Shown here: positions 3,442-29,043 of the stretch, piece by piece
Numbering within the stretch: position 1 is the stretch's first letter
Layout of the letters: each line of letters begins with the position of its first letter
DNA from: Escherichia phage W22
Sequence record: PV159336
Direction: 5' to 3' (one strand)
Length of the DNA: 64,000 nucleotides
Translations under genes and position numbers: made by a program
The notes under the pieces: generated by a model
The model's input: only the letters and a program-made list of their open reading frames with translations
Told to the model about the DNA's origin: nothing
The model's database searches: none

Positions 3442-3444
3442 TTA

Positions 3445-3468
3445 AAAGGGGCGAAAGCCCCTTTATAA
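3445..3468 (+). terminator. rho-independent terminator
   Basis: AAAGGGGC-GAAA-GCCCCTTT hairpin followed by TAT-rich tract, directly after stop at 3441. Confidence 0.6.
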
Positions 3469-3481
3469 AAGGAGTAGTAAA

Positions 3482-5443: not shown

Positions 5444-5445
5444 TC

Positions 5446-5471
5446 AAAGCCCCTTCGGGGGCTTATTATTT
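5446..5471 (+). terminator. rho-independent terminator
   Basis: AAGCCCC-TTCG-GGGGCTT hairpin then ATTATTT, 3 nt after stop. Confidence 0.65.
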
Positions 5472-5482
5472 AAGGAGATTAA

Positions 5483-8302
5483 ATGTATCCTATTCCTTTA
5501 TTTATGTCAACAACATCAGCTTCAGTAGTAACAGCTACATCTATAACCACTTCCTCTATTGGTATTGCAATAGTTGGTAGTAAAAAGCAACTGACATACA
5601 CAGTTTCACCGGAAGATGGTGCGTTATTTGATATAGCTTTTTCATCTTCAGATAATACCAAAATGGTTATAGATAATAACGGTATGATGGAGTTTGTTGC
5701 TGAAGGCGGTTTTGATGCAATAATGACAGCTAAAAATAATTTAGGTGCTGTCTTAACTGATCAGTCTGGTGGCTATGCTTCAGAATTAAGTGTGTACACT
5801 GAAAGTCTGTCTGCTATGGATGCAGGAACTACTCAACAATTGGTTGCTACAATCAGTCCAGAAGGTGCTAAAGACCTTCCAGACATGGTAATTACGTACA
5901 CCACAACAGATCCAGAAGTAGCTACTGTAAGCCCTACAGGATTAATAACTGCTCTTAAAGATGGCAGTTGCCGTATAGGTTGCACTGCAACTTATCAAGG
6001 AACAGTGGTGGCCTCTGATAGTTCTTATTTAGGTGTTAATGCTGTTCCTGTTATTTCTAATGTAACAGCCGTGGCAAACAGCTATGGAGACATTCGTGTT
6101 GCTTGGGATGTAGCTGATCCGCTAGATGGTGATACTTATACTGTAGAAGTATTAGATTTAAGTAATAACAGTGTCCAGTGGACTACAACAACCACGAATA
6201 CTTACGCCTACTTTGATATCTCTGACTCTATTCCTCTTTATGGGTTTGCTCCAACATACCTTAAAATTAGCGTTAAGAGCACCAAAGCAGCAGCCGTTAT
6301 CTTTAATAACTCAATAGCTACAGATGATTCATTCATTAAAGAAGTTATTGTCTTTGCTGGACAAGATAACGTAAATGCACACTTTACAGAACTATCTGGT
6401 GCAAATAAAGCAGCAATGAGTAGCACAACAGCCCGTAATGCATATGCTACGCAACGTGGTTTAGCAAATGCTGAAGTTCTCCCGTTAAATACAGCTTCTG
6501 GATCATCAGCAGCAGATAAATATGCAGATGATAAAGCCGGAACAGGTACACCAGACAACTACTGGTATGATCTGGATAACACAGCAGATGGGCCATGCTT
6601 AACTAACTTTATCACTAAAGTCACACCTTATGCAAGTAAGGTTAAAGCAATTATTTGGGGACAAGGTGAAAATGATGCTGTATCAGCATCTTCGACTGTT
6701 GCAGGAAGATACAGTAACACTACACGTTACCATGATGCTACGATAGCTATCTTTGATAAGATGCGTACAATAGTTCCTGCTTCTCAAGCAAAAATTGTTT
6801 GGCAGATCCTAGGACGTTCTTATCTGTATGGTGTAGAAGTTAATGGTGTGGATTGGCAGAAATACAGAAATGTACAAAGAACCATCTCTACAGCACGTGA
6901 CGATGTTATCATTGGTTCTTGGGTAGATGGTGCTGAACGTTACAGTGGTTATGTTTATGAAGAAGGTATTGATGGTCGTATCCATTATATTTCTTCTGTA
7001 TACCAGACAGCAGCTACAAAACTTGCTAAATCAGCAGCAGACGGTACAGACCTAACATCAACGTCACCTGTTTGGGTTGATATGGCTGTTCCAACTGGAG
7101 CAACAGCTACTTCCCAACCTAATCAAGATACAATCTTAGCATGGGATGCTCAAGGTTATAGTAAACACTACTTCCGTAATATTAACGTCTTAACAGCATC
7201 TGTATTAACTGAACAAACGCTTAATACGAACAGTTATACGTTTACCTATGCAGATCAAGTAGAACAATATGGTTTTGCAGCAGGTACTACGATATTTGAT
7301 GTTGCATATTATGACGAAGCAAATGATGTGTTATCTCCTTTAGTACGTTTTAATGTTAGCGTTACAGCAGGAAAAGTAGAAGATAAACCTGTCGTGATGG
7401 ACTATGATTTGACGCAAGAAACTCTCCCATCAGATGTTAAGGTTAATGGTGGAAACTCTTTTGCTCGTGCTTCTGGAGATACACTTGTAGCCACTAACAC
7501 CTTGGTTGCTCCGTTGGAGTATGTTGGCACTACCCCTGTAGGTAGACGTGTAACAGCTAACACAGCTACACAAATTTTTGTCAACAACGCCTTAACAAGC
7601 GCAAGCCCGTGGGTAAAGACCAACTTAACTGTTGCAGCTTCATCTGATAAATCTCCGGCTGGAACTACTGCTAATGTATTCAAATTAACTCCGACTACAA
7701 CCTCTGGTAGTCATATCTTAACTGCAACATATACTAACGCGTACAACATATCTGCCGGACGTAACTGGTCTGCCTCTGTTTTCTTGAAAGCGAACGGGAT
7801 TACTAAGGCCAAACTAAGATTAAAAGCAGGGACTGAAGTTAATGAAGGTACTTTTGATTTAGCAGCAGGTACATTCACAGGAAGTGAAGCTAATATTATA
7901 TCTATGGGCAACGGTTGGTATCGTGCTATTCTGCATAAAACAGGGATAGCCAAACAGTCCTCCATAAGTTTTGAAATAATTGCCTTGGATGCTACTGGTG
8001 CGGAGATTTTCGCTGGGGATGGTACTAGTAACCTTGCAGTTTGGTTGCCACAGCTTGAAGGTGCTTCTACAGGAGAAACATCAAAAGCTGGATCGCCTTA
8101 TGTCTGCACATATCCTGGAAATTTAGGAGGAGTATCCTTCACTATACCAAGGAACGGACATACTGGTGTGGATGTTTACTATTCCAACGGAGACGTTGTT
8201 CGTGACGTATTCTCTGGTACGGCATCTACTTGGACAATAAACTACTCCAGCTTGTACGATTGGGGATCAGTCTTTATTACAGGTTTGAAATATTACGACT
8301 AA
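5483..8302 (+). CDS. tail fibre protein with Ig-like (BIG2-type) repeats and SGNH/sialate-O-acetylesterase-like domain
   Basis: 939 aa; N-terminal Ig-like repeats; internal IIWGQGENDA resembles the W-x-QGESN esterase motif; AAGGAG RBS. Confidence 0.5.
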   Translation: MYPIPLFMSTTSASVVTATSITTSSIGIAIVGSKKQLTYTVSPEDGALFDIAFSSSDNTKMVIDNNGMMEFVAEGGFDAIMTAKNNLGAVLTDQSGGYASELSVYTESLSAMDAGTTQQLVATISPEGAKDLPDMVITYTTTDPEVATVSPTGLITALKDGSCRIGCTATYQGTVVASDSSYLGVNAVPVISNVTAVANSYGDIRVAWDVADPLDGDTYTVEVLDLSNNSVQWTTTTTNTYAYFDISDSIPLYGFAPTYLKISVKSTKAAAVIFNNSIATDDSFIKEVIVFAGQDNVNAHFTELSGANKAAMSSTTARNAYATQRGLANAEVLPLNTASGSSAADKYADDKAGTGTPDNYWYDLDNTADGPCLTNFITKVTPYASKVKAIIWGQGENDAVSASSTVAGRYSNTTRYHDATIAIFDKMRTIVPASQAKIVWQILGRSYLYGVEVNGVDWQKYRNVQRTISTARDDVIIGSWVDGAERYSGYVYEEGIDGRIHYISSVYQTAATKLAKSAADGTDLTSTSPVWVDMAVPTGATATSQPNQDTILAWDAQGYSKHYFRNINVLTASVLTEQTLNTNSYTFTYADQVEQYGFAAGTTIFDVAYYDEANDVLSPLVRFNVSVTAGKVEDKPVVMDYDLTQETLPSDVKVNGGNSFARASGDTLVATNTLVAPLEYVGTTPVGRRVTANTATQIFVNNALTSASPWVKTNLTVAASSDKSPAGTTANVFKLTPTTTSGSHILTATYTNAYNISAGRNWSASVFLKANGITKAKLRLKAGTEVNEGTFDLAAGTFTGSEANIISMGNGWYRAILHKTGIAKQSSISFEIIALDATGAEIFAGDGTSNLAVWLPQLEGASTGETSKAGSPYVCTYPGNLGGVSFTIPRNGHTGVDVYYSNGDVVRDVFSGTASTWTINYSSLYDWGSVFITGLKYYD

Positions 8303-8303
8303 T

Positions 8304-8335
8304 AAAAAAGGAGCCATTAGGCTCCTTTTCTTTTA
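8304..8335. terminator. bidirectional rho-independent terminator between convergent genes
   Basis: AAGGAGCC-ATTA-GGCTCCTT hairpin flanked by A-run upstream and T-run downstream; lies between + gene stop 8302 and - gene stop 8338. Confidence 0.65.
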
Positions 8336-8337
8336 TC

Positions 8338-8769
8338 TTAATCAGTGAAAATTACGCTCACATCTTCTTTAGAGAAGAGTTTATGATCTTCGCCTTTTGT
8401 CTCAAGAGTTTCATACAGGTTAAGAAGTTCTGAAACATCTTTCTCTACCAGTTTCTTCAATGTTGCAATTTTCTGTTTGCGACTCTTAATACGTTCAGCT
8501 ACAACCTTACGTTGGTATCCAGCAGTACGATAACCTGAGAAAGTTACACCAGTAAGACTTGCAGTTACAGGATCGTAGTGACGTTCAATCTGAAATTTAT
8601 TAAAAGGTACAGCGTCATCACGAATAATCTTACCGCCATTACTTACTTGACGAAGACCAGTAACTTGTTCCAGTCGTGCCATAGAAATCTTTGGAGACAG
8701 ACCAGAGTCCAAATTCATACCGTTGTTAATCAGTGCTTTCAGGGTGATTTTGCTGTTCATTGTACTCAT
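8338..8769 (-). CDS. hypothetical protein
   Basis: ORF of 143 aa; 5' end overlaps stop of upstream MTase gene so true start may be an internal Met. Confidence 0.4.
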   Translation of the reverse strand: MSTMNSKITLKALINNGMNLDSGLSPKISMARLEQVTGLRQVSNGGKIIRDDAVPFNKFQIERHYDPVTASLTGVTFSGYRTAGYQRKVVAERIKSRKQKIATLKKLVEKDVSELLNLYETLETKGEDHKLFSKEDVSVIFTD

Positions 8770-9457
8770 TTAGTCGTTCCTCCGCTTGCTTAAAAATATT
8801 TACATCGGCTTCACAGCCTAAGTATTCTCTACCTGTTAAAAGTGCCGCAACTTGTGTTGTTGCACTTCCAGAGAAGAAGTCTAAGACTACATCTCCTTCG
8901 TTGGTATGTATATTAATAAGGTCACAAAACAAAGTCAAGTGTTTTTGTGTTGGATGAAAACGATCTGCTCCTTGATAGATAGGATACTCAAACACACCCT
9001 TATGGTAGGAAGCATTGAAGGTTGGCTTCGAACCTTTAACACAAACAATAGCCATCTCTTTAGCGTTACTAAGGTAGTTAACACCACTGTTGATGGGTAC
9101 AGGGTTTGTTTTAATCCATTCAATAGTACGGAACATACGAAAACCAAGCGGTTCAAGGATTTCACGTAGCTCCTGGATCTTCCAGATATCATACCAAACT
9201 ATGCAAGTACCACCTTTTCTAAGCACCCTATAGGCTTCTTTGAATACTTCTTTAAAGTAAGGAATATCTACAACGTCCCAGTCACCAAAGTTGTAAGATA
9301 CACGGAATCTATCCGTATCTTTTCCAGTAGGCTCTCCAGATTGAAAATTTGTGTCACGAGAAATAGCATATGGTGGGTCAGTAAGAATCAAATCTACACT
9401 ATTGCTTTCGAGGGTTTGCAGGTAGTTTAATGCAGTGTTGTTTACAAATTCGCTCAT
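8726..9457 (-). CDS. DNA methyltransferase (N6-adenine/N4-cytosine class, motif IV before motif I)
   Basis: ILTDPPY catalytic motif near N-terminus and VLDFFSGSATT AdoMet-binding motif near C-terminus; GGAGAT RBS. Confidence 0.8.
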   Translation of the reverse strand: MSEFVNNTALNYLQTLESNSVDLILTDPPYAISRDTNFQSGEPTGKDTDRFRVSYNFGDWDVVDIPYFKEVFKEAYRVLRKGGTCIVWYDIWKIQELREILEPLGFRMFRTIEWIKTNPVPINSGVNYLSNAKEMAIVCVKGSKPTFNASYHKGVFEYPIYQGADRFHPTQKHLTLFCDLINIHTNEGDVVLDFFSGSATTQVAALLTGREYLGCEADVNIFKQAEERLNEYNEQQNHPESTD

Positions 9458-11525: not shown

Positions 11526-12122
11526 CTATCGTGTCCACTCTTTATGTTGTTCTACATGCTCAAGCATTTCATTATACAGTGCTTTAAGATGTGGAACAAC
11601 TCTTTCATCTTCAGTTTCAAAGAATTTTGTAAGCTGTTCTGCTTTAGCTTTCAACCAGCAAAGATGCGCTTCAATTTCAGTATTAAAACGCCCCAGCGTT
11701 TTCATGCGACCGTCTACTTTTATATTGGCTTTGTATTTATTACGATCTTTTTCGTAACTACAGCCTACCATAGTTCCATGAGATCTTTTACTTACTCTAT
11801 AAGCTAAGAACTTATTAAGATCTCCTGTTACTAAAAGACAGGTATCGGGAGAGTAAACCCTCCCTCCTATAATATCTTTATCAAGTTCTAAGTTTTCCCA
11901 GTTTTCCCAAGTTTGCAACCAGGAGTAGAAATTTGAGAACAGTTTCCATTCTTCACAAACCGTCACCCCCTTATAACAAGGATCACGTTCTTGTTGGCAA
12001 GGGGAGTAACACCTCCCCAACATAGCCATCCATTTCATATAATGCGGCGTTAGTTTCTTACTACCAGGTAGTGTACTCTCGCCTTCCAAATCATTAATAC
12101 CTTCACCATATACGGTAAGCAT
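11526..12122 (-). CDS. putative AP2-like DNA-binding / homing-endonuclease-like protein
   Basis: C-terminal KYKANIKVDGRMKTLGRFNTEIEAHLCW resembles AP2 domain pattern; free-standing between replication genes; weak call. Confidence 0.3.
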   Translation of the reverse strand: MLTVYGEGINDLEGESTLPGSKKLTPHYMKWMAMLGRCYSPCQQERDPCYKGVTVCEEWKLFSNFYSWLQTWENWENLELDKDIIGGRVYSPDTCLLVTGDLNKFLAYRVSKRSHGTMVGCSYEKDRNKYKANIKVDGRMKTLGRFNTEIEAHLCWLKAKAEQLTKFFETEDERVVPHLKALYNEMLEHVEQHKEWTR

Positions 12123-15225: not shown

Positions 15226-16998
15226 TTAATAAGAACCATCAGGAATATTCTCTGGGTTACTTGTGTATTGATCGTAATCGTGAAGTGTAGCTGTTTTAAT
15301 CTCATAGAAGAAACTACCTGCTGCACCAGTTTCTGAGAACTCACGGTTCTTTAGAATGTAGCAATATGTGCGGTTACGTTCCATAGGATCTTCAGCTTGT
15401 TTATCACGCTCCAGCGCAATTGTGATACCAGCACCTTTAGCAAGGAAGCTACTACCCATTGCATCATCTTCTACAATATGTTCATTACTATTGTTAGAAG
15501 ACTTTTTAACGTGTGAAATTACAACAATGGTAATTGCGTACTCTTTCATAATGCGTTTGAGCCACGTCGCAAGTTCCTCTTGTTGTGACACGTCCATACC
15601 AGAAAGCAAGTCAGAATAAGGGTCGATAACAAGAATGGTTACTCCGAAATAAATAATCATTTCCAGAACCTTCTCTTTAATCACATCTACGTTAGCTCCA
15701 CGATCATCACAAACATAGAAACGTGGTGTTCCATCTTCTCGTTCGTAAAAATCACGAATCTTTTCTTCATTATCTTTTAAAATCTTTTCCTTCTCTTCTT
15801 TTGTTTTACGGTGAAGAGGGATGTGCAAGAATGAAGACAGTAAGTTACGAGAATACTTCTTATACGTTGCCTCCAAAGATAAAATACCAAGAGTATGTTC
15901 TGGGTGTGCAAGAATAATGTGCTTCGTAATCTCGTTAACCAACAGTGTTTTACCGATACTTGTTTTTGCAAGTATAACAGTAATTTCTTCTTCTACCAAG
16001 CCTCCACCTAACATATTAGAAGCAACACGCATGAATGGAGGAAGGGTGATCATTTTAGCTTCCAGGCATTCCAAGGCTGCTTCATACAGTACGTTAGAAG
16101 CATAAACACCAGCAGGTGTGTACAGTTTAGCTTTGAAAAAGCGATCAAGAAAGTGATCAATTTTTCCTTCTACTAGTGCCTGGTTAGGATCTTTAACATC
16201 CGTTAGTTCCATCACGTAAACTTTATTACGTGGTAAGATTTTAACACATTTCTCAACTGCTGCACGTCCAGCTTCATCATTATCCATACACAGAACAATC
16301 TTTTTAAATTGATCTAAGAATTTATAACGATGTTGAAGCTGCTTATGCAGAGATGTTTCGCCACAAGTACCAGATACTACAGCAGGAACAGGATATTTAC
16401 CGCCCTTGTTATAATCTTTTAGCATCTGTGTTGCAGCCAGCATATCGTGTTCACCACCAACAATTAGAATAGTACCGCTGTGGTTACGATATTTAAACTC
16501 ACCAAAAAGATCACAATCCTTTCCTGTTTCACCAATAGGATGCGAAAAATCTTTTGGATCGATACGTTGTTTATACCCAGCAATATTGTAATCTTTAGTT
16601 GTAGGGTATAATGTTGAAATTACTTCGCCAGTAGCTTCATCGTACATATAGCGTACACCGAAAGGTTTAGAGATATCTTCACGAATACCGCGATAACCTT
16701 TTGGATTAGTTCCAGTGCTGGCTTTTAGTTTATCATGTACTTCTGGATTAAACTCACTACCCAAGATATCCTCCTCTTCAATTTCTTCGCCGTGTGCATT
16801 TAACCATTTTTGATCAGGGATAGTAAAGCCACAAGAAAAACAATGTGCGCCTCGATGGTCTTCATCGGCATCTAAGCCATATACCATCAAATTGTTTTGT
16901 GATCGATCACGCCCTCCTTTCATACAACGAGGACACCCAGTATGTCCTTCTTGACTTAGATCAATGTTATACCCATATTTATTTACAACATAAGACAC
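15226..16998 (-). CDS. DNA primase/helicase (T7 gp4-like)
   Basis: GTG start with AGGAGA RBS; N-terminal Cys4 zinc ribbon (CPRC...CFSC); C-terminal DnaB-like helicase with P-loop AKTSIGKT. Confidence 0.85.
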   Translation of the reverse strand: MSYVVNKYGYNIDLSQEGHTGCPRCMKGGRDRSQNNLMVYGLDADEDHRGAHCFSCGFTIPDQKWLNAHGEEIEEEDILGSEFNPEVHDKLKASTGTNPKGYRGIREDISKPFGVRYMYDEATGEVISTLYPTTKDYNIAGYKQRIDPKDFSHPIGETGKDCDLFGEFKYRNHSGTILIVGGEHDMLAATQMLKDYNKGGKYPVPAVVSGTCGETSLHKQLQHRYKFLDQFKKIVLCMDNDEAGRAAVEKCVKILPRNKVYVMELTDVKDPNQALVEGKIDHFLDRFFKAKLYTPAGVYASNVLYEAALECLEAKMITLPPFMRVASNMLGGGLVEEEITVILAKTSIGKTLLVNEITKHIILAHPEHTLGILSLEATYKKYSRNLLSSFLHIPLHRKTKEEKEKILKDNEEKIRDFYEREDGTPRFYVCDDRGANVDVIKEKVLEMIIYFGVTILVIDPYSDLLSGMDVSQQEELATWLKRIMKEYAITIVVISHVKKSSNNSNEHIVEDDAMGSSFLAKGAGITIALERDKQAEDPMERNRTYCYILKNREFSETGAAGSFFYEIKTATLHDYDQYTSNPENIPDGSY

Positions 16999-17010
16999 AT
17001 GATTCTCCTA

Positions 17011-17280
17011 CTAAAATGATTCGTTTGTCTCCATAATATATTGCATTTCCAAATCTTCCATATGTTTCTTAAATTGGTAAACAATTTCCGATGGGGAAAT
17101 ATCTATATCAAAAAGTTCTTTTGTACCAGAATAAAACCTAATACCGTCAACAATAAGTCCACCATAATAATCCCAATCACTTTCTCGTGAGAAAGGATTA
17201 GGTTCTTCATAATAGTAATCTACTTCAACAATAATAGGTTCTTTATTATCTTGTTTATACTCAAAATCAAAAGTGTTCAT
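17011..17280 (-). CDS. hypothetical protein
   Basis: 89 aa ORF; stop/start packing with neighbours. Confidence 0.4.
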   Translation of the reverse strand: MNTFDFEYKQDNKEPIIVEVDYYYEEPNPFSRESDWDYYGGLIVDGIRFYSGTKELFDIDISPSEIVYQFKKHMEDLEMQYIMETNESF

Positions 17281-18224
17281 TATAAATCCTCGATAAGCAG
17301 TCTGCGGGTTTCATTTAAATCATCAATATTGTAGTTATCTCTTACATATTTAGCAAGAGCCAATCCTTTCTCAATACAAACATCAGGAGATTCGATTAAG
17401 TATTCTACAATATCTTTCCACTCTTTAACTGAATCAGCAAAGAAGATTAGATCTTTAAATTCTTCAGTATAGTAGTTCTCTCGTGGAGAACAAACGAGTG
17501 GCAAACCTTTAGCACCAGCCTCAAGAATTTTTAAATTACTTTTGGCATTATTAAAATGATTATTTACTAATGGAGCTATGGAGATTTGATGACCATCGTA
17601 TGCTTCCATATAACACTCATAAGGACGAATACCTTCATAAACACAATCTGGTTGAATCTCTTCTTTAATTTGCAACCATTGAGCACTACTTAACTCTTCG
17701 TGATCTCTACGAAATCCACATAAAGTTAAATCTTTACCAAAAGCAGGAAGAATTGCTAAATCATGTTTATGTGTTTCACTTCCCGCCCAAACCAGTGGGC
17801 TTTTAGAATAACGATCTTTAGTAAGAACAAACTGCCCTTCATCAAAAGGTAGTCCGTTAGGCACAATATGTACATTATCATTGTATTGGCTTAATTCAAC
17901 CTTTAATGCTGGAGTTGTTGTAGTTACAAGATCGCTTCTTTCAAGGAACCATTTTAGGTCATCTCGGATTTGACTTTCAAATAATCCTTCCAGCATATGC
18001 CCTTCAGGAATAATTAAAGAATCATCCAGATCCATTACCAATTTAAACCCAAGTTGTTTAAGAGCCAGGAAACCTGGCTTTCCACGAGTTGGTACTCCAT
18101 TGAATACAAAAATATTATGCTTAGGATTAATAGTCAGTTTGCGTTTATATGGCAAAATGATTCTATGAAAATCACATACACTATACCTTTCATGTCCACG
18201 TGTGTCAAGAATAATATTAGGCAT
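17280..18224 (-). CDS. glycosyltransferase (GT-B fold-like), paralogue A
   Basis: AAGGAG RBS; shares YDGH-IAPLV-N-FNN-KSNLKILEAGAKGLP block with adjacent paralogue. Confidence 0.5.
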   Translation of the reverse strand: MPNIILDTRGHERYSVCDFHRIILPYKRKLTINPKHNIFVFNGVPTRGKPGFLALKQLGFKLVMDLDDSLIIPEGHMLEGLFESQIRDDLKWFLERSDLVTTTTPALKVELSQYNDNVHIVPNGLPFDEGQFVLTKDRYSKSPLVWAGSETHKHDLAILPAFGKDLTLCGFRRDHEELSSAQWLQIKEEIQPDCVYEGIRPYECYMEAYDGHQISIAPLVNNHFNNAKSNLKILEAGAKGLPLVCSPRENYYTEEFKDLIFFADSVKEWKDIVEYLIESPDVCIEKGLALAKYVRDNYNIDDLNETRRLLIEDL

Positions 18225-18235
18225 ATGGCTCCTTG

Positions 18236-19210
18236 TTAAAGACTTTCAATAACTTGACGACGCAGTTCATTGGCATCTGCAAGATTATAATTAAGACGAA
18301 CGTGTTCTGCAAGCATCATACCACGATCTTCTGTGTATCTAGGGTTCCTCATTAGCTTGACAACTTCATAATGCCAAGATGCTTTAGAGTCTGCATAAAT
18401 AACAGCCTTTGCATCTACCGGATTGAAGTACGGCAGCACAGGAGAACAGATAATAGGAAGACCCTTTGCACCTGCTTCCAAAATCTTCAAATTGCTTTTA
18501 CAGTTGTTGAAGTCATTATCTACCAGAGGAGCAATTGCAATACTGTGACCGTCATACACAGACATATACTCACCTAAATTTTTAATAGCTGGTTTATACT
18601 GTGCATTTGGAATTTTACGTTTTACTTTAACCCACTCCGCAGTAGTTAGATACTGACTATTATTTCCAACAGGTGCAGAAGGATACACTTCATACCCTGC
18701 AATTGTCAATAGCGTATCATCAAATGTGTTAGCTACAAGAGATAAATCAGGTTCATGGCTTGCTCCTCCAGCCCAAACGATAGGCGTGTCAGAATAACGG
18801 TCTTTTGTCAAAGTAAATTGACCTTCATCGTAAGGTAGTGCGTTTCTAATAACGACAACATTACGATTTAAATGACGAATTTTGTAAGCTAGGTATTCTG
18901 TTGTTACAGTAACAACATCTGCTAACTTAACCATCTCTACAATAGTCTTTGAGTGATTAGTAAATACGCCAGCCATATAATGTTCAGGATTAAGCGAATA
19001 AAAGTCATCTAAATCAACAATAATCTTAACACCTTGTGCCTTCAGGCGTTTAACTTCGTCTGATCCACGAGAATACACTCTATTAAAAACTAAAACGTCT
19101 TTCTTAGGCTTAAACGTATTTCCCGCAAATGGCATTACAATACGATGGTAATCACAACCACTGCCTAACTTATTATCACACTTAAGTACAGGAGTATTAG
19201 GATTTACCAT
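18236..19210 (-). CDS. glycosyltransferase (GT-B fold-like), paralogue B
   Basis: Start refined to ATG 19210 (GAGGAGG RBS, overlaps stop of upstream gene); clear paralogue of 17280-18224. Confidence 0.5.
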   Translation of the reverse strand: MVNPNTPVLKCDNKLGSGCDYHRIVMPFAGNTFKPKKDVLVFNRVYSRGSDEVKRLKAQGVKIIVDLDDFYSLNPEHYMAGVFTNHSKTIVEMVKLADVVTVTTEYLAYKIRHLNRNVVVIRNALPYDEGQFTLTKDRYSDTPIVWAGGASHEPDLSLVANTFDDTLLTIAGYEVYPSAPVGNNSQYLTTAEWVKVKRKIPNAQYKPAIKNLGEYMSVYDGHSIAIAPLVDNDFNNCKSNLKILEAGAKGLPIICSPVLPYFNPVDAKAVIYADSKASWHYEVVKLMRNPRYTEDRGMMLAEHVRLNYNLADANELRRQVIESL

Positions 19211-19883
19211 ATTTTTGAGCCTCCTCATAAGAGATAAAAGTTTTACCATTGCGAAGATCCTCCAGTGATTGTTTATATTGTTCCCAGTTTACACCAATCC
19301 CCTGTTCTTTCTCTTCTTTTGACAGATTCGCAAAAGGTAAAGGGTTGTCTCCAAACACATCATCAGGATGGATAAACGCCATAATTCGAATAGGACATGG
19401 TACGCCCTGAATACCTCGGTTCAAACCTGCTAGTGGAACGCGCTGAATCCACTCTGCATCTTCATATCCATAACCGTGGGTGTATGAGCGGAAATAGCCA
19501 GCTTTCTCAATAACTGCACGGGAATACATACCAAACTGGCACATACCTAGTTCCCAAATAACCACTTCACCTTCAATACCTTTTACTTTATCTTTAAAGT
19601 ATTCAGGCATACCAAAGAAATCCCAGCCATTTTCCTTAGCTTGTTTTACAAAATATGTTTCCCAACCTGGCACAACCGGATAGCAATCATCATCAAAAAT
19701 AAACCAGTAATCATACCCTTCATCATAAAACTTTTTCATCAGTTCATTACGAGCATATGCAACACCTTTTCGTTCCCGATCATACTGTACAACAAAAGTA
19801 GCATTAGGATCAGTCACAAGATAATCTTTAAGAGGACGCTTACCTACAGTAATAACACCAACACCAATTTTTGTATTTTCCAA
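19197..19883 (-). CDS. glycosyltransferase (GT-A fold-like, DxD)
   Basis: TTG start with AAGGAG RBS; FIFDDDCYP acidic motif typical of nucleotide-sugar transferases. Confidence 0.45.
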   Translation of the reverse strand: MENTKIGVGVITVGKRPLKDYLVTDPNATFVVQYDRERKGVAYARNELMKKFYDEGYDYWFIFDDDCYPVVPGWETYFVKQAKENGWDFFGMPEYFKDKVKGIEGEVVIWELGMCQFGMYSRAVIEKAGYFRSYTHGYGYEDAEWIQRVPLAGLNRGIQGVPCPIRIMAFIHPDDVFGDNPLPFANLSKEEKEQGIGVNWEQYKQSLEDLRNGKTFISYEEAQKYGKS

Positions 19884-19892
19884 AATAACTCC

Positions 19893-20456
19893 TTAAATAA
19901 TTTTATTCATGTCTTGACAATGTAAAAGGTGTGAAACAGCTTTTCTAGGATCATCATTACCTAAACGGTATGTGTGAAATAAATATAACCCACGTAGTAA
20001 ACCTAGCCTTTTATTGTTAGCGTGTAATGCTTTAGAGAAAATTATATCAAACTGTATTGATCTTTCCTCAAAAGGGATTTCATTCCACAAACTCTTACGA
20101 AAGAGAAGAAAGAATCCTGCTAAGATAGCATCTGTAGGTACTTCCTCTATTGAGTTTCCCCATTCTAGATGTGCTCTTTTTGCAATCTCAATGTGGTGTA
20201 ATATATTTGGATCTTCACTTCTTTCATTATTAAATAATTGATATGTTGATCCCAGTCTATTACAAGATGCACCAAGAACATCAAAATCAGGATTTGAACG
20301 GACTATTGATTCCAACCAAGCAGGTTGTTCTGGAAGAAGAAACATTGTATCAATGTCTCTTAGGCAAATCCAACTATCTTCTGGTAAGACACTTATTGTG
20401 TCATTGATACCTTTTCCAATATCTCCAGAAAGATAGGGAGTTATGTGAAATATCAT
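19893..20456 (-). CDS. putative glycosyltransferase/nucleotide-sugar transferase
   Basis: GGAGGG RBS; CLRDIDTMF acidic motif; fourth member of the transferase cluster; weak call. Confidence 0.35.
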   Translation of the reverse strand: MIFHITPYLSGDIGKGINDTISVLPEDSWICLRDIDTMFLLPEQPAWLESIVRSNPDFDVLGASCNRLGSTYQLFNNERSEDPNILHHIEIAKRAHLEWGNSIEEVPTDAILAGFFLLFRKSLWNEIPFEERSIQFDIIFSKALHANNKRLGLLRGLYLFHTYRLGNDDPRKAVSHLLHCQDMNKII

Positions 20457-20513
20457 ACTCCCTCCGTATTATTACTTTAGCATTTTTAGACTAAAAAGTC
20501 CAAATGGTTTTAC

Positions 20514-20708
20514 CTATTGATTACGTTTTGCGAGTTCCATTTGGATAGCTAAACTGTGATCTCGTGCTTCCATATACTCTTTATATGTTTCATTAAGATG
20601 ATCACGACAAACATCACGCAGTTTAATCAGTTTATCTGTAGGGATACCACTAAGATCATCCCAAGACTTTACAACTTCACCAGTATCATTGATCCCAATG
20701 GTTTTCAT
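20514..20708 (-). CDS. hypothetical protein
   Basis: 64 aa ORF. Confidence 0.35.
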   Translation of the reverse strand: MKTIGINDTGEVVKSWDDLSGIPTDKLIKLRDVCRDHLNETYKEYMEARDHSLAIQMELAKRNQ

Positions 20709-20916
20709 CTACAACCTCCTTAATTGCTACAGCACAGTTTTTGCAGATACACTGCCCTTTACCTTTAGAAATCTGGATGTAAGGTTCATTTTCATTTTCG
20801 CCCTTACGTGAGTCATATATTACAGAATTGAAGCACACAACGCAAATATTTTTTAAGATTGTATACTTATCAACTTTCTTTTTTGTTTTAAAGTTAACTT
20901 CAATAACATCAGCCAT
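20686..20916 (-). CDS. small zinc-ribbon protein
   Basis: Start refined to ATG 20916 (TGATG overlap with upstream stop); two CxxC pairs (CVVC...CICKNC). Confidence 0.4.
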   Translation of the reverse strand: MADVIEVNFKTKKKVDKYTILKNICVVCFNSVIYDSRKGENENEPYIQISKGKGQCICKNCAVAIKEVVDENHWDQ

Positions 20917-21194
20917 CAGTGTAACACTCCCAGTATGTTGTTTTGTGACATAACCATAGAACATTCAACATTATCGTGACTACGTGAAAAACGTTCCCAA
21001 ACATCTTCATCGACTCGTAAAGCTATACAAGGATAGACGTTATCATTGATCATTTCAATTGAATAAACATCCACATTGTCTTCGTCCTCGATGAACATCA
21101 TTGCAAACTGTTCTAAATGTTTCCTAATGTAATGTACATCCTCTTCTGTAAGACCAATAACAAGATAACTTGCAACGATAACGCCATCTTTCAT
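20916..21194 (-). CDS. hypothetical protein
   Basis: 92 aa ORF, translationally coupled to downstream gene. Confidence 0.4.
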   Translation of the reverse strand: MKDGVIVASYLVIGLTEEDVHYIRKHLEQFAMMFIEDEDNVDVYSIEMINDNVYPCIALRVDEDVWERFSRSHDNVECSMVMSQNNILGVLH

Positions 21195-21204
21195 CTATAT
21201 CTCC

Positions 21205-21714
21205 TTAGCGATAGAATTGATGTTCTTTGTAGCGGTACACCAGAACCATATCTTTTTCCCAGTGTGCTCTTATTGTAGATTTTTTAAAGTATAATGCTCC
21301 TTTTGTAATATCTAATGCAATTCGTAATTCTGGAAAATGGTTATCGAGATAAAGTAGACGTTCTGCTATAGCTTTAGCGTCTTTCCACTTATCGTGTTCC
21401 ATAACGTTGAATGTCTTCGTGTAAGAGAATTGTCCTTTCTGAAACAAAACTTCTTTTATAGTATCAGGGAAATATGAATCTCTAGCCCTATTCAATACTA
21501 CATTACCAACAGCAGACATACCGCGCTTTCCTTGATTACGACTTTCTGCATAGATTGCACAAGCTAATAGATTTTCTTTACTATCACGCTTTGTACACTT
21601 GTGAACTACTTTAGCAGTTTTTACGTTTGCAGCTTCGGCTTGCGCCACAACAGGTGTAAATGTAAAAGCAGTTAAGGATAGTAACGCAATTGCGACAAAG
21701 GTTTTTATTGACAA
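21205..21714 (-). CDS. secreted cell-wall hydrolase (SleB/CwlJ-type), candidate endolysin
   Basis: TTG start with AGGAGG RBS; signal peptide MSIKTFVAIALLSLTAFTFTPVVAQA; CAIYAESRNQ...AVGNVVLNRA...FPDTIKEVLFQKGQFS block. Confidence 0.65.
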   Translation of the reverse strand: MSIKTFVAIALLSLTAFTFTPVVAQAEAANVKTAKVVHKCTKRDSKENLLACAIYAESRNQGKRGMSAVGNVVLNRARDSYFPDTIKEVLFQKGQFSYTKTFNVMEHDKWKDAKAIAERLLYLDNHFPELRIALDITKGALYFKKSTIRAHWEKDMVLVYRYKEHQFYR

Positions 21715-21745
21715 ACTTGCCTCCTATTTTGTTAAACGAACTTTT

Positions 21746-21774
21746 ATTGTAACACAGAAGAGGCTATTTTGCAA
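21746..21774 (-). promoter_or_regulatory. sigma70-like promoter for cell-wall hydrolase gene
   Basis: On - strand TTGCAA (21769-74), 17 nt, TACAAT (21746-51), about 30 nt upstream of start. Confidence 0.5.
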
Positions 21775-21806
21775 GTGGAGGGGGACTATCCCCCTCTTAC
21801 ACTCTG

Positions 21807-22409
21807 TTAGATATTGTAAACCTTTGTATGAGTTACTACACCATCTTCTACAAAATCAATACGTTCTTGATCCGTGACTAGTGCAGACAACACTTTAAAT
21901 TTAATTTTTACACGTTCAAAAGCTGGTTGACCATCTTTAAGATAATTATGTTCGGTTGTCACTGTCTTGTTTACAAAATCAACTTTCGCTTTACCGTTTT
22001 CGCGTAGGTGGAATGTTTTTCCTGCTTTGTACACAATTTCAACATTACCTTCGAGAGTAATTCCTTCAAAAAGTTCACCCTCTTCTTCATTTTCTTCACT
22101 TTTGAACAGACGACGAAACTCTTCCATATCAAGATAAACAACATCTTCAGAAGAACTATCAGTAAGATATGTCTTACCCTCCATCAACCCGAAATATTGC
22201 CAGATTGCCGAATAAACATCACTAGATGATCCAAGGGTTTCTCTGAGTTTAGTTCCACGGATTACTTCATAAACTTCAAAATTGAAACCAGACTGCAAAG
22301 CATCAAACAGCACATCACTAACTTCTAAAGCATAATCTTCATCGCTGTCAATATCTACAAGAAAATTGCCGCTACGAATAAGTTTTTGACCTTCTAAAGT
22401 AATACCCAT
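21807..22409 (-). CDS. hypothetical acidic protein
   Basis: 200 aa ORF with AGAGGAG RBS. Confidence 0.45.
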   Translation of the reverse strand: MGITLEGQKLIRSGNFLVDIDSDEDYALEVSDVLFDALQSGFNFEVYEVIRGTKLRETLGSSSDVYSAIWQYFGLMEGKTYLTDSSSEDVVYLDMEEFRRLFKSEENEEEGELFEGITLEGNVEIVYKAGKTFHLRENGKAKVDFVNKTVTTEHNYLKDGQPAFERVKIKFKVLSALVTDQERIDFVEDGVVTHTKVYNI

Positions 22410-22436
22410 TGTTTTCTCCTCTTTTATTTCAAATAT

Positions 22437-22452
22437 GCGCCCCGAAGGGCGC
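22437..22452 (-). terminator. hairpin terminator downstream of TerD-like gene
   Basis: GCGCCC-CGAA-GGGCGC hairpin followed by AT-rich tract on - strand. Confidence 0.4.
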
Positions 22453-22473
22453 TATGATTTATTACTTGACGTC

Positions 22474-23070
22474 TTACTCGAACCAATCGTCGCCAGCGCC
22501 AAACGCTTTAACTACATCGTAAATGTCAAGCCCAGCTTTACCTACACCATATGCTTTCAGTTTCCATTCGCTATCTTCTCGCACCAGGGAGGCAACGTGG
22601 CAAATGGTGTTACCTGCAAGTTCTGGAGCCAAGAAGTCAAAGTCCAGCAGTTCAACATTACGTTCATCATCGAAGATTTTAAGGAAACCTTCGGTAGCGT
22701 GACCAAGGCGTTTCTTACCCGTTTCGTCATCAATAGTAATTACGAATGCAATTTCCTGTGCTTCAGCAGAGATATTATCCAGTGTAACATCAATCTGCTC
22801 CATCTGTCCTACACCATCACGAACATCTTCACCTGCAAAAGTAGAACGTTCAGGATCAAATTTCTGCGCGTAGCACACCAGGTGACGAGGAGACAACAGT
22901 TCCGGCAGACCAGATGCATTGTGTCGGCAAATCAGAGCACTAACATCCAGATCCAGTTTTTCGTTAGATTTCCAAGAGAATTCCAGACGAATGCGTTTCA
23001 GTGCTGGTGCGATCTTTTTCAGAGAAACTTTTTCGCTAGAACCTTTTTTCAGGGAAATTTTCTGAGTCAT
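22474..23070 (-). CDS. TerD-family protein
   Basis: AAGGAGA RBS; ISLKKGSSEKVSLKK, LDLDVSAL, acidic GEDVRDGVG, EIAFVITIDD and EWKLKAYGVG blocks match TerD pattern. Confidence 0.8.
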   Translation of the reverse strand: MTQKISLKKGSSEKVSLKKIAPALKRIRLEFSWKSNEKLDLDVSALICRHNASGLPELLSPRHLVCYAQKFDPERSTFAGEDVRDGVGQMEQIDVTLDNISAEAQEIAFVITIDDETGKKRLGHATEGFLKIFDDERNVELLDFDFLAPELAGNTICHVASLVREDSEWKLKAYGVGKAGLDIYDVVKAFGAGDDWFE

Positions 23071-23142
23071 AATTTATTATCTCCTTTGTTGTTAATTTAC
23101 GTTGTCTATTTTACTAATCTTTTCTACAAAGTCAAGCGTTTT

Positions 23143-23937
23143 TTACGCTTTTGCTCCGAATTTTTTAACCCACTCACCAAACTCTTCGGATAACAGTTTA
23201 TCGTAAAGTTCTTCATCAGACAAGGACAAATCTGCAATACCGATAAAATCAACATTATCGTACTCTTTTGCCAAGTCTTTCAGGAATTTAAAGTTTGCAT
23301 TACCTACACCAACCATAAACCAGTAAACAGGCGTATTGCGGTGTTTGTTCAGTAAGCTACGTACTGCTGAAGTATCCATGTTTTCCCCGTCAGTTTGGAA
23401 GAAAATCATTGCAGGAGTACGATCAACTTGTGCATCAGTATCTACAACCTGTTCTACAACAGTACGTGTTACTTCTACAAGTTCTTTTTTACCAGTTAGT
23501 TTAGCAAGGAAACCCTTAGCCGGGACTTCTTCATACTCAACGACTTCACGTGTAATATTTTTCATAGGTACACTACCGAAGTATGTATCATAGATCTCTT
23601 GCATTACTGGAGCATAAGCAGTACCACCGTTGATGCAAACATTAGACATGCAAGAGCCGACATAATCATCATACACATCAGCCGTTGCAGGAGGCAGTTC
23701 AAAAGAAGAACTATTGAAAGCCCACATGTCAATCTGTGCATTATCATCAAACTTCATACCAAACGGCAGCAGTTTACCTACAAAATCACTAACAGTGCCA
23801 TCACGATACAGCTCACACATACTACCCGAAATATCTAAGGCGCTACCGACACGAAGAACAACATCGTTAATCTTTTTCTTACGCAGAGATACAGTAAGAG
23901 TTTCTTGACGTTTTTTAAGACTGATTTTATTGGACAT
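23143..23937 (-). CDS. von Willebrand factor A (vWA) domain protein
   Basis: AAAGGAGA RBS; MIDAS-like DISGSM and downstream GGTAY; N-terminus ISLKK...VSLRK resembles TerD N-terminus. Confidence 0.5.
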   Translation of the reverse strand: MSNKISLKKRQETLTVSLRKKKINDVVLRVGSALDISGSMCELYRDGTVSDFVGKLLPFGMKFDDNAQIDMWAFNSSSFELPPATADVYDDYVGSCMSNVCINGGTAYAPVMQEIYDTYFGSVPMKNITREVVEYEEVPAKGFLAKLTGKKELVEVTRTVVEQVVDTDAQVDRTPAMIFFQTDGENMDTSAVRSLLNKHRNTPVYWFMVGVGNANFKFLKDLAKEYDNVDFIGIADLSLSDEELYDKLLSEEFGEWVKKFGAKA

Positions 23938-24964: not shown

Positions 24965-25197
24965 TACACATTCTCCTCTTTTACCAATTCCATCGTTGAA
25001 CTATCAAAACCATCTTTAGAAGAATAGGTATAGACAGAACGTAGTTCTCGCAGGACAGTAAATACATTAGGATCATCTAACCAAGCATCCTGGAGGAGAA
25101 CATAACGATCTTCATTGTCGTACTGGACAGCGATCATAGAACCAGACAGTTTGTAAATTTTAATATTCATAATATATTGCTCCTTAAAGTAGACCAC
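24964..25197 (-). CDS. hypothetical protein
   Basis: 77 aa ORF. Confidence 0.35.
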   Translation of the reverse strand: MVYFKEQYIMNIKIYKLSGSMIAVQYDNEDRYVLLQDAWLDDPNVFTVLRELRSVYTYSSKDGFDSSTMELVKEENV

Positions 25198-26287
25198 GTT
25201 TAACAGTTTGAATCATACCATCTTCAAGAGATTGCACTTCTTGAATATAATCAATACGAGCAGCACGGGCTTCAGTGTTGATTCGGTTAGTTTCTTCCAA
25301 CATTTTAACTAAGTTTTCTTGATCGCGACGTAATGTTTCAATATCCAATACTTGACGATTAGCAAGTTGCGTAGCTTCAATTTGGTTTTGTGAAGCCAGA
25401 TCACTACCCATTGCAATAGCAGCATTAAATTCATTCAGTACATTGTTCTGTGTATCGGCTGCTTTCTTCTGGCGTAGACTTTCAATATACATAGAAAAGT
25501 TTGCAGAGTAAGCAGGGATAACATTATTCACAATGTTACGTGCTGATCGCATCAAACTTGCAGATACTTTCTGCATACTTTGTACACGTGGCCCCATCTG
25601 AACACACAGTAAACGCAAGGCTTTCAGGTCTGCAATACGAATTTCAAGCAGATCCATAGTATCACGAGTACGTTGACGCTCTTCTACTTCATTTTCAGGT
25701 AGTGTATTAAGGCGAACTTCTTCTTTTTCATAAGTAGCTGTTAGAAGCTCTATATCCCTGTTTAAGCTAAGAGCATATTTTGCAATAGCCTCTTCTAAAC
25801 GTTGCAGATATCGTAAAGAATCTTCTTCTTTTTTCAAGTCTGTTTGGAGTGTCTTTACCAAACCTTCAATACGATTATTGATGGTGTCAAATTCACCAAA
25901 CAAATCTTCTTTCATACCTAATACTTTCTTAACTAGTTTACCTAAGCCTTTAGATTGTTTAATAGAGTTAGGATCAAGTTGCTTTGCTTGCTTAATAAGT
26001 GCAGTTAAACGTTCACTCATTTCATCTCCCTGAGATGAACGCTGGTGTTTAAGCACTTCAGCATTAAGGTTACGAAGAGTAAGTCCTGCATCAGCACCAA
26101 CTTGTTCAATCTCTTCACGAGACATTGGAGGCAGCATTTGTACAGGTCGTGCAACAGCAGGGGCATATACAGGGCTTGCATCCATAGCACTTGGAGCAAA
26201 CAAAGACTTACTTTTTTCTGTTGTTGCCGTGAATACACTCATTTCAGACGGTTTGCTTTTTACGGCACTGATAAAAGGACTGGACAT
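25184..26287 (-). CDS. TelA-like (toxic anion resistance family) helical protein
   Basis: GGAGGA RBS; 367 aa, alpha-helical, coiled-coil-rich; similarity judged by pattern and by context with TerD/TerC; unverified. Confidence 0.4.
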   Translation of the reverse strand: MSSPFISAVKSKPSEMSVFTATTEKSKSLFAPSAMDASPVYAPAVARPVQMLPPMSREEIEQVGADAGLTLRNLNAEVLKHQRSSQGDEMSERLTALIKQAKQLDPNSIKQSKGLGKLVKKVLGMKEDLFGEFDTINNRIEGLVKTLQTDLKKEEDSLRYLQRLEEAIAKYALSLNRDIELLTATYEKEEVRLNTLPENEVEERQRTRDTMDLLEIRIADLKALRLLCVQMGPRVQSMQKVSASLMRSARNIVNNVIPAYSANFSMYIESLRQKKAADTQNNVLNEFNAAIAMGSDLASQNQIEATQLANRQVLDIETLRRDQENLVKMLEETNRINTEARAARIDYIQEVQSLEDGMIQTVKRGLL

Positions 26288-28029: not shown

Positions 28030-28060
28030 ATCACCTCAACAAAGCCCCCGAAGGGGCTTA
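28030..28060 (-). terminator. rho-independent terminator after TerC-like gene
   Basis: AAGCCCC-CGAA-GGGGCTT hairpin then UUUGUUG on - strand. Confidence 0.55.
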
Positions 28061-28065
28061 ATGAA

Positions 28066-29043
28066 TTAAGCAACAGCCTGGTCTTCTTTTTCAGGGAAGA
28101 TTAAACTTGCAATAACACCCAGCCCCAGAGTACCTAACACAATATACATACTGATCGTCGGATCAATGTGTGCTGGCAGGAAACTCACTTTTGCGTGCAG
28201 AGTTTCTGCAAACGGGTGATACATCAGTTTTACACCCACAAATACCAGGACTACGATAACTGCTTTCTCCAGATGAACCAAATATTTCAGTGCAACACTA
28301 AGGACAAAGAACAGAGCACGTAGACCTAAAATTGCACACAGCATTGAAGAAAATACAAGCAGAGGTTCTTGTGTCACTGCAATTACTGCTGGAACAGAGT
28401 CTACTGCAAAGATTACGTCAACCATTTCCATTACAAACACACAAACCAATGCAGGAGTTGCTACACGAACACCATTTTTGATTGTGAAGAACTTCTCACC
28501 ATCCATCTGATCAGATACAGGGAACAGCTTACGAACAATGCGAGTAGCCCAGTGTTTAGAGTAATCAACTTCTGCGTCATTATCTCCAGCGAATACCATT
28601 TTAGCTGCACAGAAAAGGATGACCGCACCGAAGAAGATATTAACATACCAGCCCAAACTCAACAAGTAAGTACCTACTGCTACAAACACACCTCGGAAGA
28701 CAATCGCACCTGCAATACCCCAAAGTAGAATCTTGTGTTGCAAGTGTGTACTTTTAATACCAAAACTTGCGAATACTGCCACAAATACTACTAAGTTATC
28801 TACAGAAAGAGATTTCTCCAACACATACCCACTCAAGAACAAGCTCGCAAAATCAGCACCGTGTTGGAAGTATACAAAACCATAGTAGGCTAATGATACC
28901 CCAATCCAGAAAATTGACCAGCCAATTGCAGATTTAAATGAAATTTCTTTGTTTTCCCTGTGTCCAAAGAAATCAATACAAATCGACAAGACTAAAATAC
29001 CCACTAAAACAACCACATCAATAATTGGGAAACCCAGTTGCAT
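28066..29043 (-). CDS. TerC-family integral membrane protein
   Basis: AGAGGAG RBS; multi-TM; signature LEKSLSVDNLVVF. Confidence 0.8.
   Translation of the reverse strand: MQLGFPIIDVVVLVGILVLSICIDFFGHRENKEISFKSAIGWSIFWIGVSLAYYGFVYFQHGADFASLFLSGYVLEKSLSVDNLVVFVAVFASFGIKSTHLQHKILLWGIAGAIVFRGVFVAVGTYLLSLGWYVNIFFGAVILFCAAKMVFAGDNDAEVDYSKHWATRIVRKLFPVSDQMDGEKFFTIKNGVRVATPALVCVFVMEMVDVIFAVDSVPAVIAVTQEPLLVFSSMLCAILGLRALFFVLSVALKYLVHLEKAVIVVLVFVGVKLMYHPFAETLHAKVSFLPAHIDPTISMYIVLGTLGLGVIASLIFPEKEDQAVA

Follow-up and report, generated by a model that had tools for sequence, protein, structure and literature searches.

Introduction

According to two papers that cite Freeman et al. 2023 (PMC12363180, PMC11256854), the virions of the mycobacteriophages Che8, Corndog and Myrna are glycosylated by phage-encoded enzymes, with gp110 of Che8 and gp38 of Corndog being essential. 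The subject of this study is a group of four adjacent glycosyltransferase genes in Escherichia phage W22 (sequence record PV159336), of which a stretch of 64,000 nucleotides, here called the window, was analysed. As in the mycobacteriophages, the glycosyltransferases are phage-encoded, soluble and cytoplasmic, and it is quite possible that the four of them O-glycosylate virion proteins in the cytoplasm; this is the interpretation that is tentatively put forward here. There are also differences. The operon belongs to a phage with a Gram-negative host, lies in a replication block, comes with a pathway for deoxythymidine diphosphate-rhamnose (dTDP-rhamnose), and includes two GT4-type enzymes with the glycosyltransferase B (GT-B) fold. 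In the mycobacteriophages glycosylated proteins have been reported; here they are predicted. To our knowledge, phage-encoded virion glycosylation has been shown only in a few mycobacteriophages, and a report on the mycobacteriophage system is said to call the evidence elsewhere among phages scant.

A related combination is known from capsid glycosylation in the chlorovirus PBCV-1 (Vp54), where the virus encodes both glycosyltransferases, rhamnosyltransferases among them, and a supply of rhamnose nucleotide, as this phage group does, and where the glycan is assembled independently of the host secretory machinery. In mimivirus, R655 and R699 share the glycosyltransferase A (GT-A) fold with one of the four phage proteins (D, below), a likeness at the level of the fold only, with no homology at the level of the sequence. 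These giant viruses differ from the phage in belonging to another virus realm with another capsid fold, and in using a donor linked to uridine diphosphate (UDP) or guanosine diphosphate rather than dTDP-rhamnose.

For the phages closest to W22 a different substrate has been proposed. Olsen 2020 (PMC7552041) described a complete dTDP-rhamnose pathway in phi92-like and phAPEC8-like phages, and speculated that rhamnose glycosylates hydroxymethylated nucleotides. In plating experiments, Maffei 2021 (PMC8594841) found phi92-like phages "exceptionally susceptible" to restriction-modification (RM) systems "despite a putative dTDP glycosylation machinery", and both the speculation and the RM susceptibility are restated in PMC10844046. 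Apart from this speculation and the RM data, the literature that we searched contained neither experiments on the four transferases or on the modification of DNA in Stephanstirmvirinae nor a nucleoside analysis. The gene annotations are not the novelty here; they are already known, and the idea of DNA glycosylation is in print, weakened by published data. What appears to be new is the association of three enzyme families with head modules, and the link of one of them to mycobacteriophage enzymes.

The operon and its four glycosyltransferases

Judged by folds and motifs, the four proteins are glycosyltransferases of the GT-A and GT-B folds, and they are encoded in one operon. The genes lie on the minus strand inside a long minus-strand run and are called D, C, B and A in the order of transcription. 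The operon, with the open reading frames (ORFs) that follow it, is made up as follows.

20456-19893, minus strand: D, first gene of the operon; minimal GT-A protein of 187 amino acids, invariant D34-x-D36
19883-19197, minus strand: C; GT-A protein of 228 amino acids, TTG start, invariant FDDD (63-66) and YGxED (138-142)
19210 (or 19249)-18236, minus strand: B; GT-B/GT4-like paralogue of A, 324 (or 337) amino acids
18224-17280, minus strand: A; GT-B/GT4-like protein of 314 amino acids
17280-17011, minus strand: small acidic ORF of 89 amino acids, isoelectric point (pI) 4.1; matches PHROG 4240 (function not assigned) at 8e-35
16998-15226, minus strand: primase-helicase
14729-12150, minus strand: DNA polymerase

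An earlier examination of the letters alone, the sequence-only reading, had called four tightly coupled glycosyltransferase-like genes at these positions, and this call holds. D and C are separated by 9 nucleotides, C and B overlap by 14 (53 with the longer form of B), B and A are 11 apart, and A overlaps the 89-amino-acid ORF by 1. Every gene of the operon is preceded by a Shine-Dalgarno sequence, including C, where AAGGAG stands upstream of the TTG start, and both candidate starts of B (19210 and 19249); the start at 19210 is favoured by B-type homologues of 322-324 amino acids (P0023, P0026 and P0028). The cluster had also been placed downstream of the primase-helicase and polymerase, but in the direction of transcription it lies upstream of them, the order being D, C, B, A, the acidic ORF, primase-helicase and DNA polymerase. 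None of the four transferases has a transmembrane segment. B is mildly basic, whereas the other three have an acidic pI (5.1-5.6). The 89-amino-acid ORF is kept at the same position in EmilieFrey, Eryne and the Klebsiella phage FKP3, and may tentatively be counted as part of the glycosyltransferase system.

The region from 17000 to 20700 is 98-99% identical to that of more than 50 complete genomes of Justusliebigvirus (phi92-like phages, Stephanstirmvirinae), the genus to which the window belongs; among these genomes are pEC-M2929-1AR.1, SD2, PHB05, EmilieFrey (Bas61), Eryne and phi92; in Eryne the window corresponds to approximately 26.6-88.4 kb. In some of these relatives' records the genes A-D are already labelled "glycosyltransferase" or "putative disaccharide synthase", and for A/B the label RfaG is found as well.

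C and D have the GT-A fold, which in the case of D is confirmable solely by structure prediction; the prediction, with its DxD motif, agrees with the previous description of this gene as transferase-like. In both proteins an acidic DxD-type motif is conserved across the family: D34 and D36 are invariant in D, and in C the residues D64-D65-D66 are part of an invariant F63-D64-D65-D66, accompanied in the alignment by a second invariant motif, Y138-G139-x-E141-D142. The DDD motif and the TTG start of C had both been recognised before and are confirmed. As GT-A enzymes, C and D are probably metal-dependent. C matches PHROG 2456 ("glycosyltransferase") at 2e-79, and its family is large, with 1475 representatives at E<=1e-3; in ten multidomain members, the fusion partners are further GT-A domains only. 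The Pfam matches of C are all under threshold, and recur as such among 18 family members for TAGT in 17, for Glyco_transf_7C in 11 and for GT2 in 10.

A and B are paralogues, as had been claimed, with 41% identity over 311 residues (BLASTP, E = 5e-82) and a common block, KSNLKILEAGAKGLP, in which K228, S229, K232 and E235 are invariant in an alignment of 38 family members. Both show two Rossmann-like domains and a fold match to GT4 enzymes. The block reads A227-K-S-N-L-K-I-L-E235, so that the first Glu of the canonical EX7E motif is seemingly replaced. A scores 26.8 bits against Pfam Glyco_trans_1_2 (cutoff 25). With Pfam models B reaches 14.7-17.9 bits, which is under the cutoffs, and it matches PHROG 7162 at 4e-149. 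GT4 enzymes are generally retaining, and A and B, being GT4-like, are probably retaining as well. Searches of the PDB with the single sequences A, C and D gave nothing useful, and with family profiles gave weak GT4 matches for A/B only and none for C or D. The A/B family comprises 57 proteins by word-index search, and at least 552 related stretches in IMG/VR.

The same families in other phages

D-like loci were taken from IMG/VR, leaving out Stephanstirmvirinae and near-duplicates (>70% identity), which gave 37 loci; the neighbours within 6 kb were clustered and the cluster representatives identified with Pfam. The neighbours, with the number of D-like loci in which each was found, were as follows.

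C-like GT-A gene, mostly adjacent: 20 of 37
portal: 19 of 37
HK97-type major capsid protein: 18 of 37
prohead protease: 14 of 37
MuF: 11 of 37
gp6-type connector: 11 of 37
head-completion protein: 9 of 37
tail tube: 7 of 37
A/B-like enzyme: 5 of 37

At least one head gene lies within 6 kb in 27 of these loci, and in 11 the transferases stand between the head-assembly genes and the connector or tail genes. The typical order is portal, MuF, protease, capsid, C (not always present), D, connector, head completion and tube. An example from an isolated phage is gp41 of Cellulophaga phage phi18:1, which has a D-like C-terminus (161 bits) and is flanked by MuF on one side and by the protease and capsid genes on the other, beside a Methyltransf_24 gene. 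On other contigs, D-like genes head larger sugar clusters with aminotransferases, epimerases, deacetylases and methyltransferases. A similar picture is given by 19 non-redundant A/B-like loci, where a C-like neighbour is found in 12, a hexapeptide acetyltransferase in 6, an XkdF-type head protease adjoining the A/B gene in 5, and a terminase-like gene a few genes downstream in 5. One of the A/B contigs has the order TerL, portal, protease, capsid, C, A/B, and on another a C-like and an A-like gene are directly upstream of the terminase.

From these neighbourhoods it is seen that the three families form a mobile module that is habitually located in or beside head-assembly genes, and that phi92-like phages, where they lie in the replication block, are exceptional in this. 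The sequence-only reading had taken the position in the replication module as favouring a role on DNA; this placement is specific to the lineage, the families being found mostly in head-assembly modules elsewhere. The content of the locus also differs between relatives. In FKP3 only D and one GT-B gene are present at the locus, with a distant C-like gene (35% identity) elsewhere in the genome, and gene content that varies with the host genus in this way fits a glycan of variable length and composition.

Co-occurrence with a rhamnose pathway

A/B, C, D and RmlC were searched with tblastn against 50,697 phage records. A, D and RmlC were each found in about 140-167 records, of which about 55 are Justusliebigvirus, about 75 Phapecoctavirus and 8-10 Klebsiella relatives. 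Nearly all matches are within those three groups, and there is no room among them for Vequintavirus, the rV5-like sister group. C is found in the same set of E. coli and Klebsiella phages and, in addition, in many mycobacteriophages. Such co-occurrence speaks for a functional connection of the transferases with the rml genes, although few evolutionary events lie behind it. In phi92 and phAPEC8 the genes are arranged rmlB-A-C-D between ribonucleotide reductase and thioredoxin genes, RmlB, RmlC and RmlD of Eryne are above the NCBIfam equivalog cutoffs, and RmlC is also present in PHB05 (99.1% identity in the glycosyltransferase region). A complete RmlA-D pathway is thus encoded in close relatives, outside this window. 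Going by the co-occurrence across the subfamily, one or more of the four transferases may use dTDP-rhamnose, a donor specificity that the fold does not reveal.

Eryne itself shows a deviation from this arrangement. In its genome (PQ529420, 115716-117026) a 436-amino-acid ORF joins rmlB in frame to the C-terminal half of RmlA (model positions 156-284 of 286), leaving RmlA without its N-terminal nucleotide-binding half, whereas in phi92 and phAPEC8 rmlB and rmlA are separate and intact. The fusion looks like a natural deletion, perhaps tolerable where the host supplies RmlA or RffH. A second observation on these genera concerns host labels. Four records deposited as "Campylobacter phage" with host C. 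jejuni (MG065639, MG065645, MG065656 and MG065689; 146 kb) are 98.3% identical to E. coli Justusliebigvirus here, and records labelled as Serratia, Acinetobacter or Pseudomonas phage also fall within these coliphage genera. Such host labels look doubtful, or contamination may be involved.

Envelope glycans and other soluble acceptors as alternatives

Among the closest structural neighbours of A there are enzymes with lipid-linked acceptors (PglA-like, PglH/WlaC, PimA, WaaG and WbnH), and the neighbours of D include TarP, TarS and AvpGT. Together with the labels "putative disaccharide synthase" and RfaG on A/B, these would suit enzymes that work at the inner membrane face on undecaprenyl-linked or lipid A-core intermediates, whereby a rhamnose-containing surface polysaccharide of the host would be altered or newly made, either for superinfection exclusion or to keep progeny from binding to debris. 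Peripheral O-antigen transferases often have no transmembrane segments, which also agrees with the proteins found here, and the phages are known to target surface glycans with many tailspikes (PMC11990801). However, no flippase, polymerase, ligase or initiating phosphoglycosyl transferase is present in the glycosyltransferase cluster, and a virulent phage with a short latent period would presumably gain little from a new envelope glycan. Nor does this account easily for the position of the genes in many small phages, with capsid genes on one side and connector genes on the other. Remodelling of the envelope is thus unlikely.

Other structural neighbours of A are protein O-glycosyltransferases (GtfA and SdgB) and small-molecule enzymes (BshA, MshA and TreT), bringing up the case of a soluble acceptor that is not part of the virion. 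This could be a host protein, as a means of takeover (compare EarP arginine rhamnosylation, or toxin-type glycosyltransferases), a phage protein from outside the virion, or a small molecule, for instance a defence signal. It would go well with soluble, cytoplasmic enzymes encoded in the early/middle block of a genome that is rich in counter-defence genes (NADAR, macrodomain, salvage of nicotinamide adenine dinucleotide). A protein substrate is hinted at by the gene for P0045 in Burkholderia, which adjoins an adhesin gene of the invasin/intimin type. On the other hand, nothing specific points to any particular target, the families are associated with head modules, and the presence of four transferases beside a dedicated rhamnose pathway speaks more for an oligosaccharide than for one regulatory sugar. 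An acceptor of this kind is considered decidedly unlikely.

P0045 is the only clearly bacterial homologue of A/B, a protein of 411 amino acids on Burkholderia dolosa contig JAIMDN010000082 (examined stretch 3025-8440). Its gene overlaps the end of a 571-amino-acid gene of no assigned function, which itself comes after a gene for an 853-amino-acid inverse-autotransporter (intimin/invasin-type) adhesin. This locus may serve the glycosylation of the adhesin.

DNA as an alternative acceptor

Glycosylation of DNA as a protection against restriction was the explanation that the sequence-only reading favoured. In this case, modified bases of the phage would receive rhamnose or other sugars from the transferases. 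The operon does abut the primase-helicase and polymerase genes, and a thymidine bearing an oligosaccharide is known in phage YerA41 (PMC9023294). The enzymes of the T-even phages (AGT and BGT of T4, and the beta-glucosyl-hydroxymethylcytosine alpha-glucosyltransferase of T2 and T6) are likewise phage-encoded and soluble, and C weakly matches PHROG 842, the family of T-even hydroxymethylcytosine glucosyltransferases (5e-5 over 40 residues). In other respects the T-even systems differ, as there is no hydroxymethylcytosine pathway here, the phage group is restriction-sensitive and no Pfam match to the T4 families is seen. A structural homology search had been suggested as a check, and with A it places the T4 alpha- and beta-glucosyltransferases only at ranks 18 and 27, far from the nearest neighbours.

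The source of a suitable base is a further problem. The sole thymidylate-synthase-like gene in Eryne is of the ThyX type (TIGR02170, PF02511), and no hydroxymethylase of the ThyA family, the enzyme for hydroxymethyl-pyrimidine synthesis in a T-even-type system, is present in the annotations of Eryne, EmilieFrey and the phi92 region that was read. About 30 unannotated or ambiguous ORFs of Eryne gave no Pfam match to TET/JBP dioxygenases, a search that small ORFs or distant homologues could escape. With ThyX only and no TET/JBP match, there is no visible source of hydroxymethyl bases. As a rejected candidate, the 200-amino-acid ORF at 21807-22409 was considered as a hydroxylase, but has only a faint cupin match and no supporting motif or family match.

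For TAGT (PF20691), the likeness to C consists of a shared GT-A fold and an N-terminal nucleotide-sugar region that resembles the model, and the match counts for something in that it recurs under threshold in nearly all of the family members compared. It is nevertheless below the gathering threshold (23.3 bits against 27.5) and restricted to model positions 37-96, i.e. 60 of 205, the nucleotide-sugar-binding part, with Glyco_transf_7C and GT2 being about equally weak. TAGT is associated with TET/JBP enzymes and a C5-cytosine methyltransferase. The genus does encode a C5-cytosine methyltransferase, which in TET systems supplies the substrate, but in Eryne this gene (104258-105247, Pfam 2e-43) is about 60 kb from the operon. 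The DNA methyltransferase in the window, which had been cited as favouring DNA modification, is a Dam-like N6-adenine enzyme at 8726-9457 (DPPY motif; the Eryne orthologue matches N6_N4_Mtase at 2e-30). The operon is 7.8 kb distant from it, and nothing evident connects this enzyme with glycosylation.

Dense glycosylation of the DNA is unlikely, then, in view of the lack of a visible ThyA-type or TET source, the sub-threshold TAGT score, the distance of AGT and BGT, and the published RM susceptibility. The acidity of A, C and D is also untypical of DNA-binding enzymes, and the location of the families mostly in the head modules of other phages speaks against a substrate of this kind. The often-repeated idea of glycosylated DNA in phi92-like phages is not supported, and base glycosylation as a shield against restriction seems improbable. 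Of the sequence-only reading, the gene calls stand and the preference for DNA is not supported; surface or protein substrates were the alternative that it had listed.

A more particular variant would have the operon, fed by the phage's dTDP-rhamnose, place a rhamnose-containing sugar or oligosaccharide on DNA at sparse sites only. Such sites might be created by the phage's methyltransferases for C5-cytosine or N6-adenine, or else by an oxidase that has escaped recognition; their density would be too low to matter against the RM systems tested, and the target could be another defence. We consider this very improbable; if true, a sparse rhamnose-type DNA sugar would be a new kind of DNA hypermodification.

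Virion proteins as the proposed acceptor

Glycosylation of virion proteins, the interpretation preferred here, would have the four soluble enzymes work as an assembly line in the cytoplasm, building a short glycan directly on virion proteins while these are assembled. D and C (GT-A, with DxD and DDD motifs) would act first, followed by the GT4-like GT-B enzymes B and A, making up to four linkages. The donors would be UDP-sugars of the host together with dTDP-L-rhamnose from the phage's own RmlB-A-C-D, which is encoded elsewhere in the genome. In this scheme the acceptor is presumably a virion protein, rhamnose would be among the sugars, and the enzymes are taken to act in the order of their genes.

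Besides the head modules, the connection to mycobacteriophages points towards the virion. Outside its own subfamily, the tblastn matches of C among isolated phages come predominantly from mycobacteriophages (341 records). C shares its GT-A family with TChen gp98 (75.5 bits with the C-family profile) and Myrna gp234 (66 bits), which may or may not be one of the enzymes responsible for glycosylation in Myrna. The gene for TChen gp98 is at the right end of the genome just before an HNH gene, the locus which in Che8 is held by the glycosyltransferases gp108-110, and related modules occur elsewhere among capsid genes.

Several points weigh against this interpretation, the doubt about the role of Myrna gp234 being one of them. 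The C profile has no significant match to Che8 gp108-110 themselves. The 37 D-like loci are from related lineages, so that the counts are not independent, and a neighbourhood is no more than an association. In the present phage the operon is in the early/middle replication block and not in the head module, and the rml genes lie outside the window, their presence being taken from relatives with 98-99% identity. No report of glycosylated virion proteins in phi92-like phages was found in the literature. Finally, a search for Ser/Thr-rich tails on head and tail proteins of Eryne gave no clear signal, only the ends of the sheath and portal proteins being mildly rich in Ser/Thr/Asn.

Two more specific candidates were tried and rejected. 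The first is the lateral tail fibre at 3482-5443 (plus strand), a protein of 653 amino acids with a GTG start and, in four short stretches, collagen-like Gly-X-Y repeats with many GDK triplets. The comparison with rhamnosylated BclA, which would make the fibre an acceptor, remains speculation; the repeats are of the GDK type and not GXT. A tail fibre with collagen repeats (gp52) is found as well in phage phi18:1, which has the D-like glycosyltransferase; the shared fibres may be coincidence or a hint of collagen-type glycosylation. The second is Eryne 3848-4327, in the gap between portal and protease and annotated as a "DNA methyltransferase", which was considered as a glycan O-methyltransferase. 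It has an XkdF-type prohead protease domain (Pfam 2.5e-11), so that the deposited annotation is seemingly wrong; another Eryne "DNA methyltransferase" (75424-75975) is a NADAR domain (Pfam 4e-36).

Other features near the operon

A scan for promoters and terminators from 16800 to 22600 found no enrichment over shuffled sequence. The sole terminator-like hairpin of the scanned region is on the plus strand at 22437-22452, at the start of an ORF of 252 amino acids (22435-23193, plus strand) that overlaps nearly fully with 22474-23070 (minus strand), an HNH endonuclease by the annotation of relatives. The plus-strand ORF is probably spurious. At 21205-21714 (minus strand), 750 nucleotides from the operon and in the early/middle block, there is an SleB-type cell-wall hydrolase (Hydrolase_2, 7e-20) with an N-terminal signal-like hydrophobic segment; at another place in its genome, Eryne also encodes an endolysin of the T4-lysozyme type.

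Between the polymerase and a 204-amino-acid ORF there is an ORF of 198 amino acids (11526-12122, minus strand) with no Pfam or NCBIfam match. It is present in EmilieFrey (bas61_0041), is replaced by a 31-amino-acid ORF in Eryne, and has an HNH endonuclease in the equivalent area of FKP3; the locus beside the polymerase is a small indel hotspot. A TelA-like gene (25184-26287, minus strand; Pfam 4e-34) and a TerC-like gene (about 28050-29030, minus strand; Pfam 1e-38 in the Eryne orthologue) lie at a distance of a few kb from the operon. Such tellurite-resistance-type genes are unusual cargo for a virulent phage.

Biological meaning

The association of the three families with head modules, together with the mycobacteriophage link of C, makes virion glycosylation in phages of Gram-negative bacteria a concrete idea that is cheap to test. 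If true, a glycan on the virion would explain why these phages carry a full dTDP-rhamnose pathway, which is otherwise odd. Phages of the phi92-like and phAPEC8-like groups have a very broad host range and are used in therapy cocktails, and a glycan coat, if present, would affect antibody recognition, clearance, mucus binding and the stability of the particle. As the module of the three families is found in hundreds of uncultured phages, often in head blocks, the phenomenon could be widespread.

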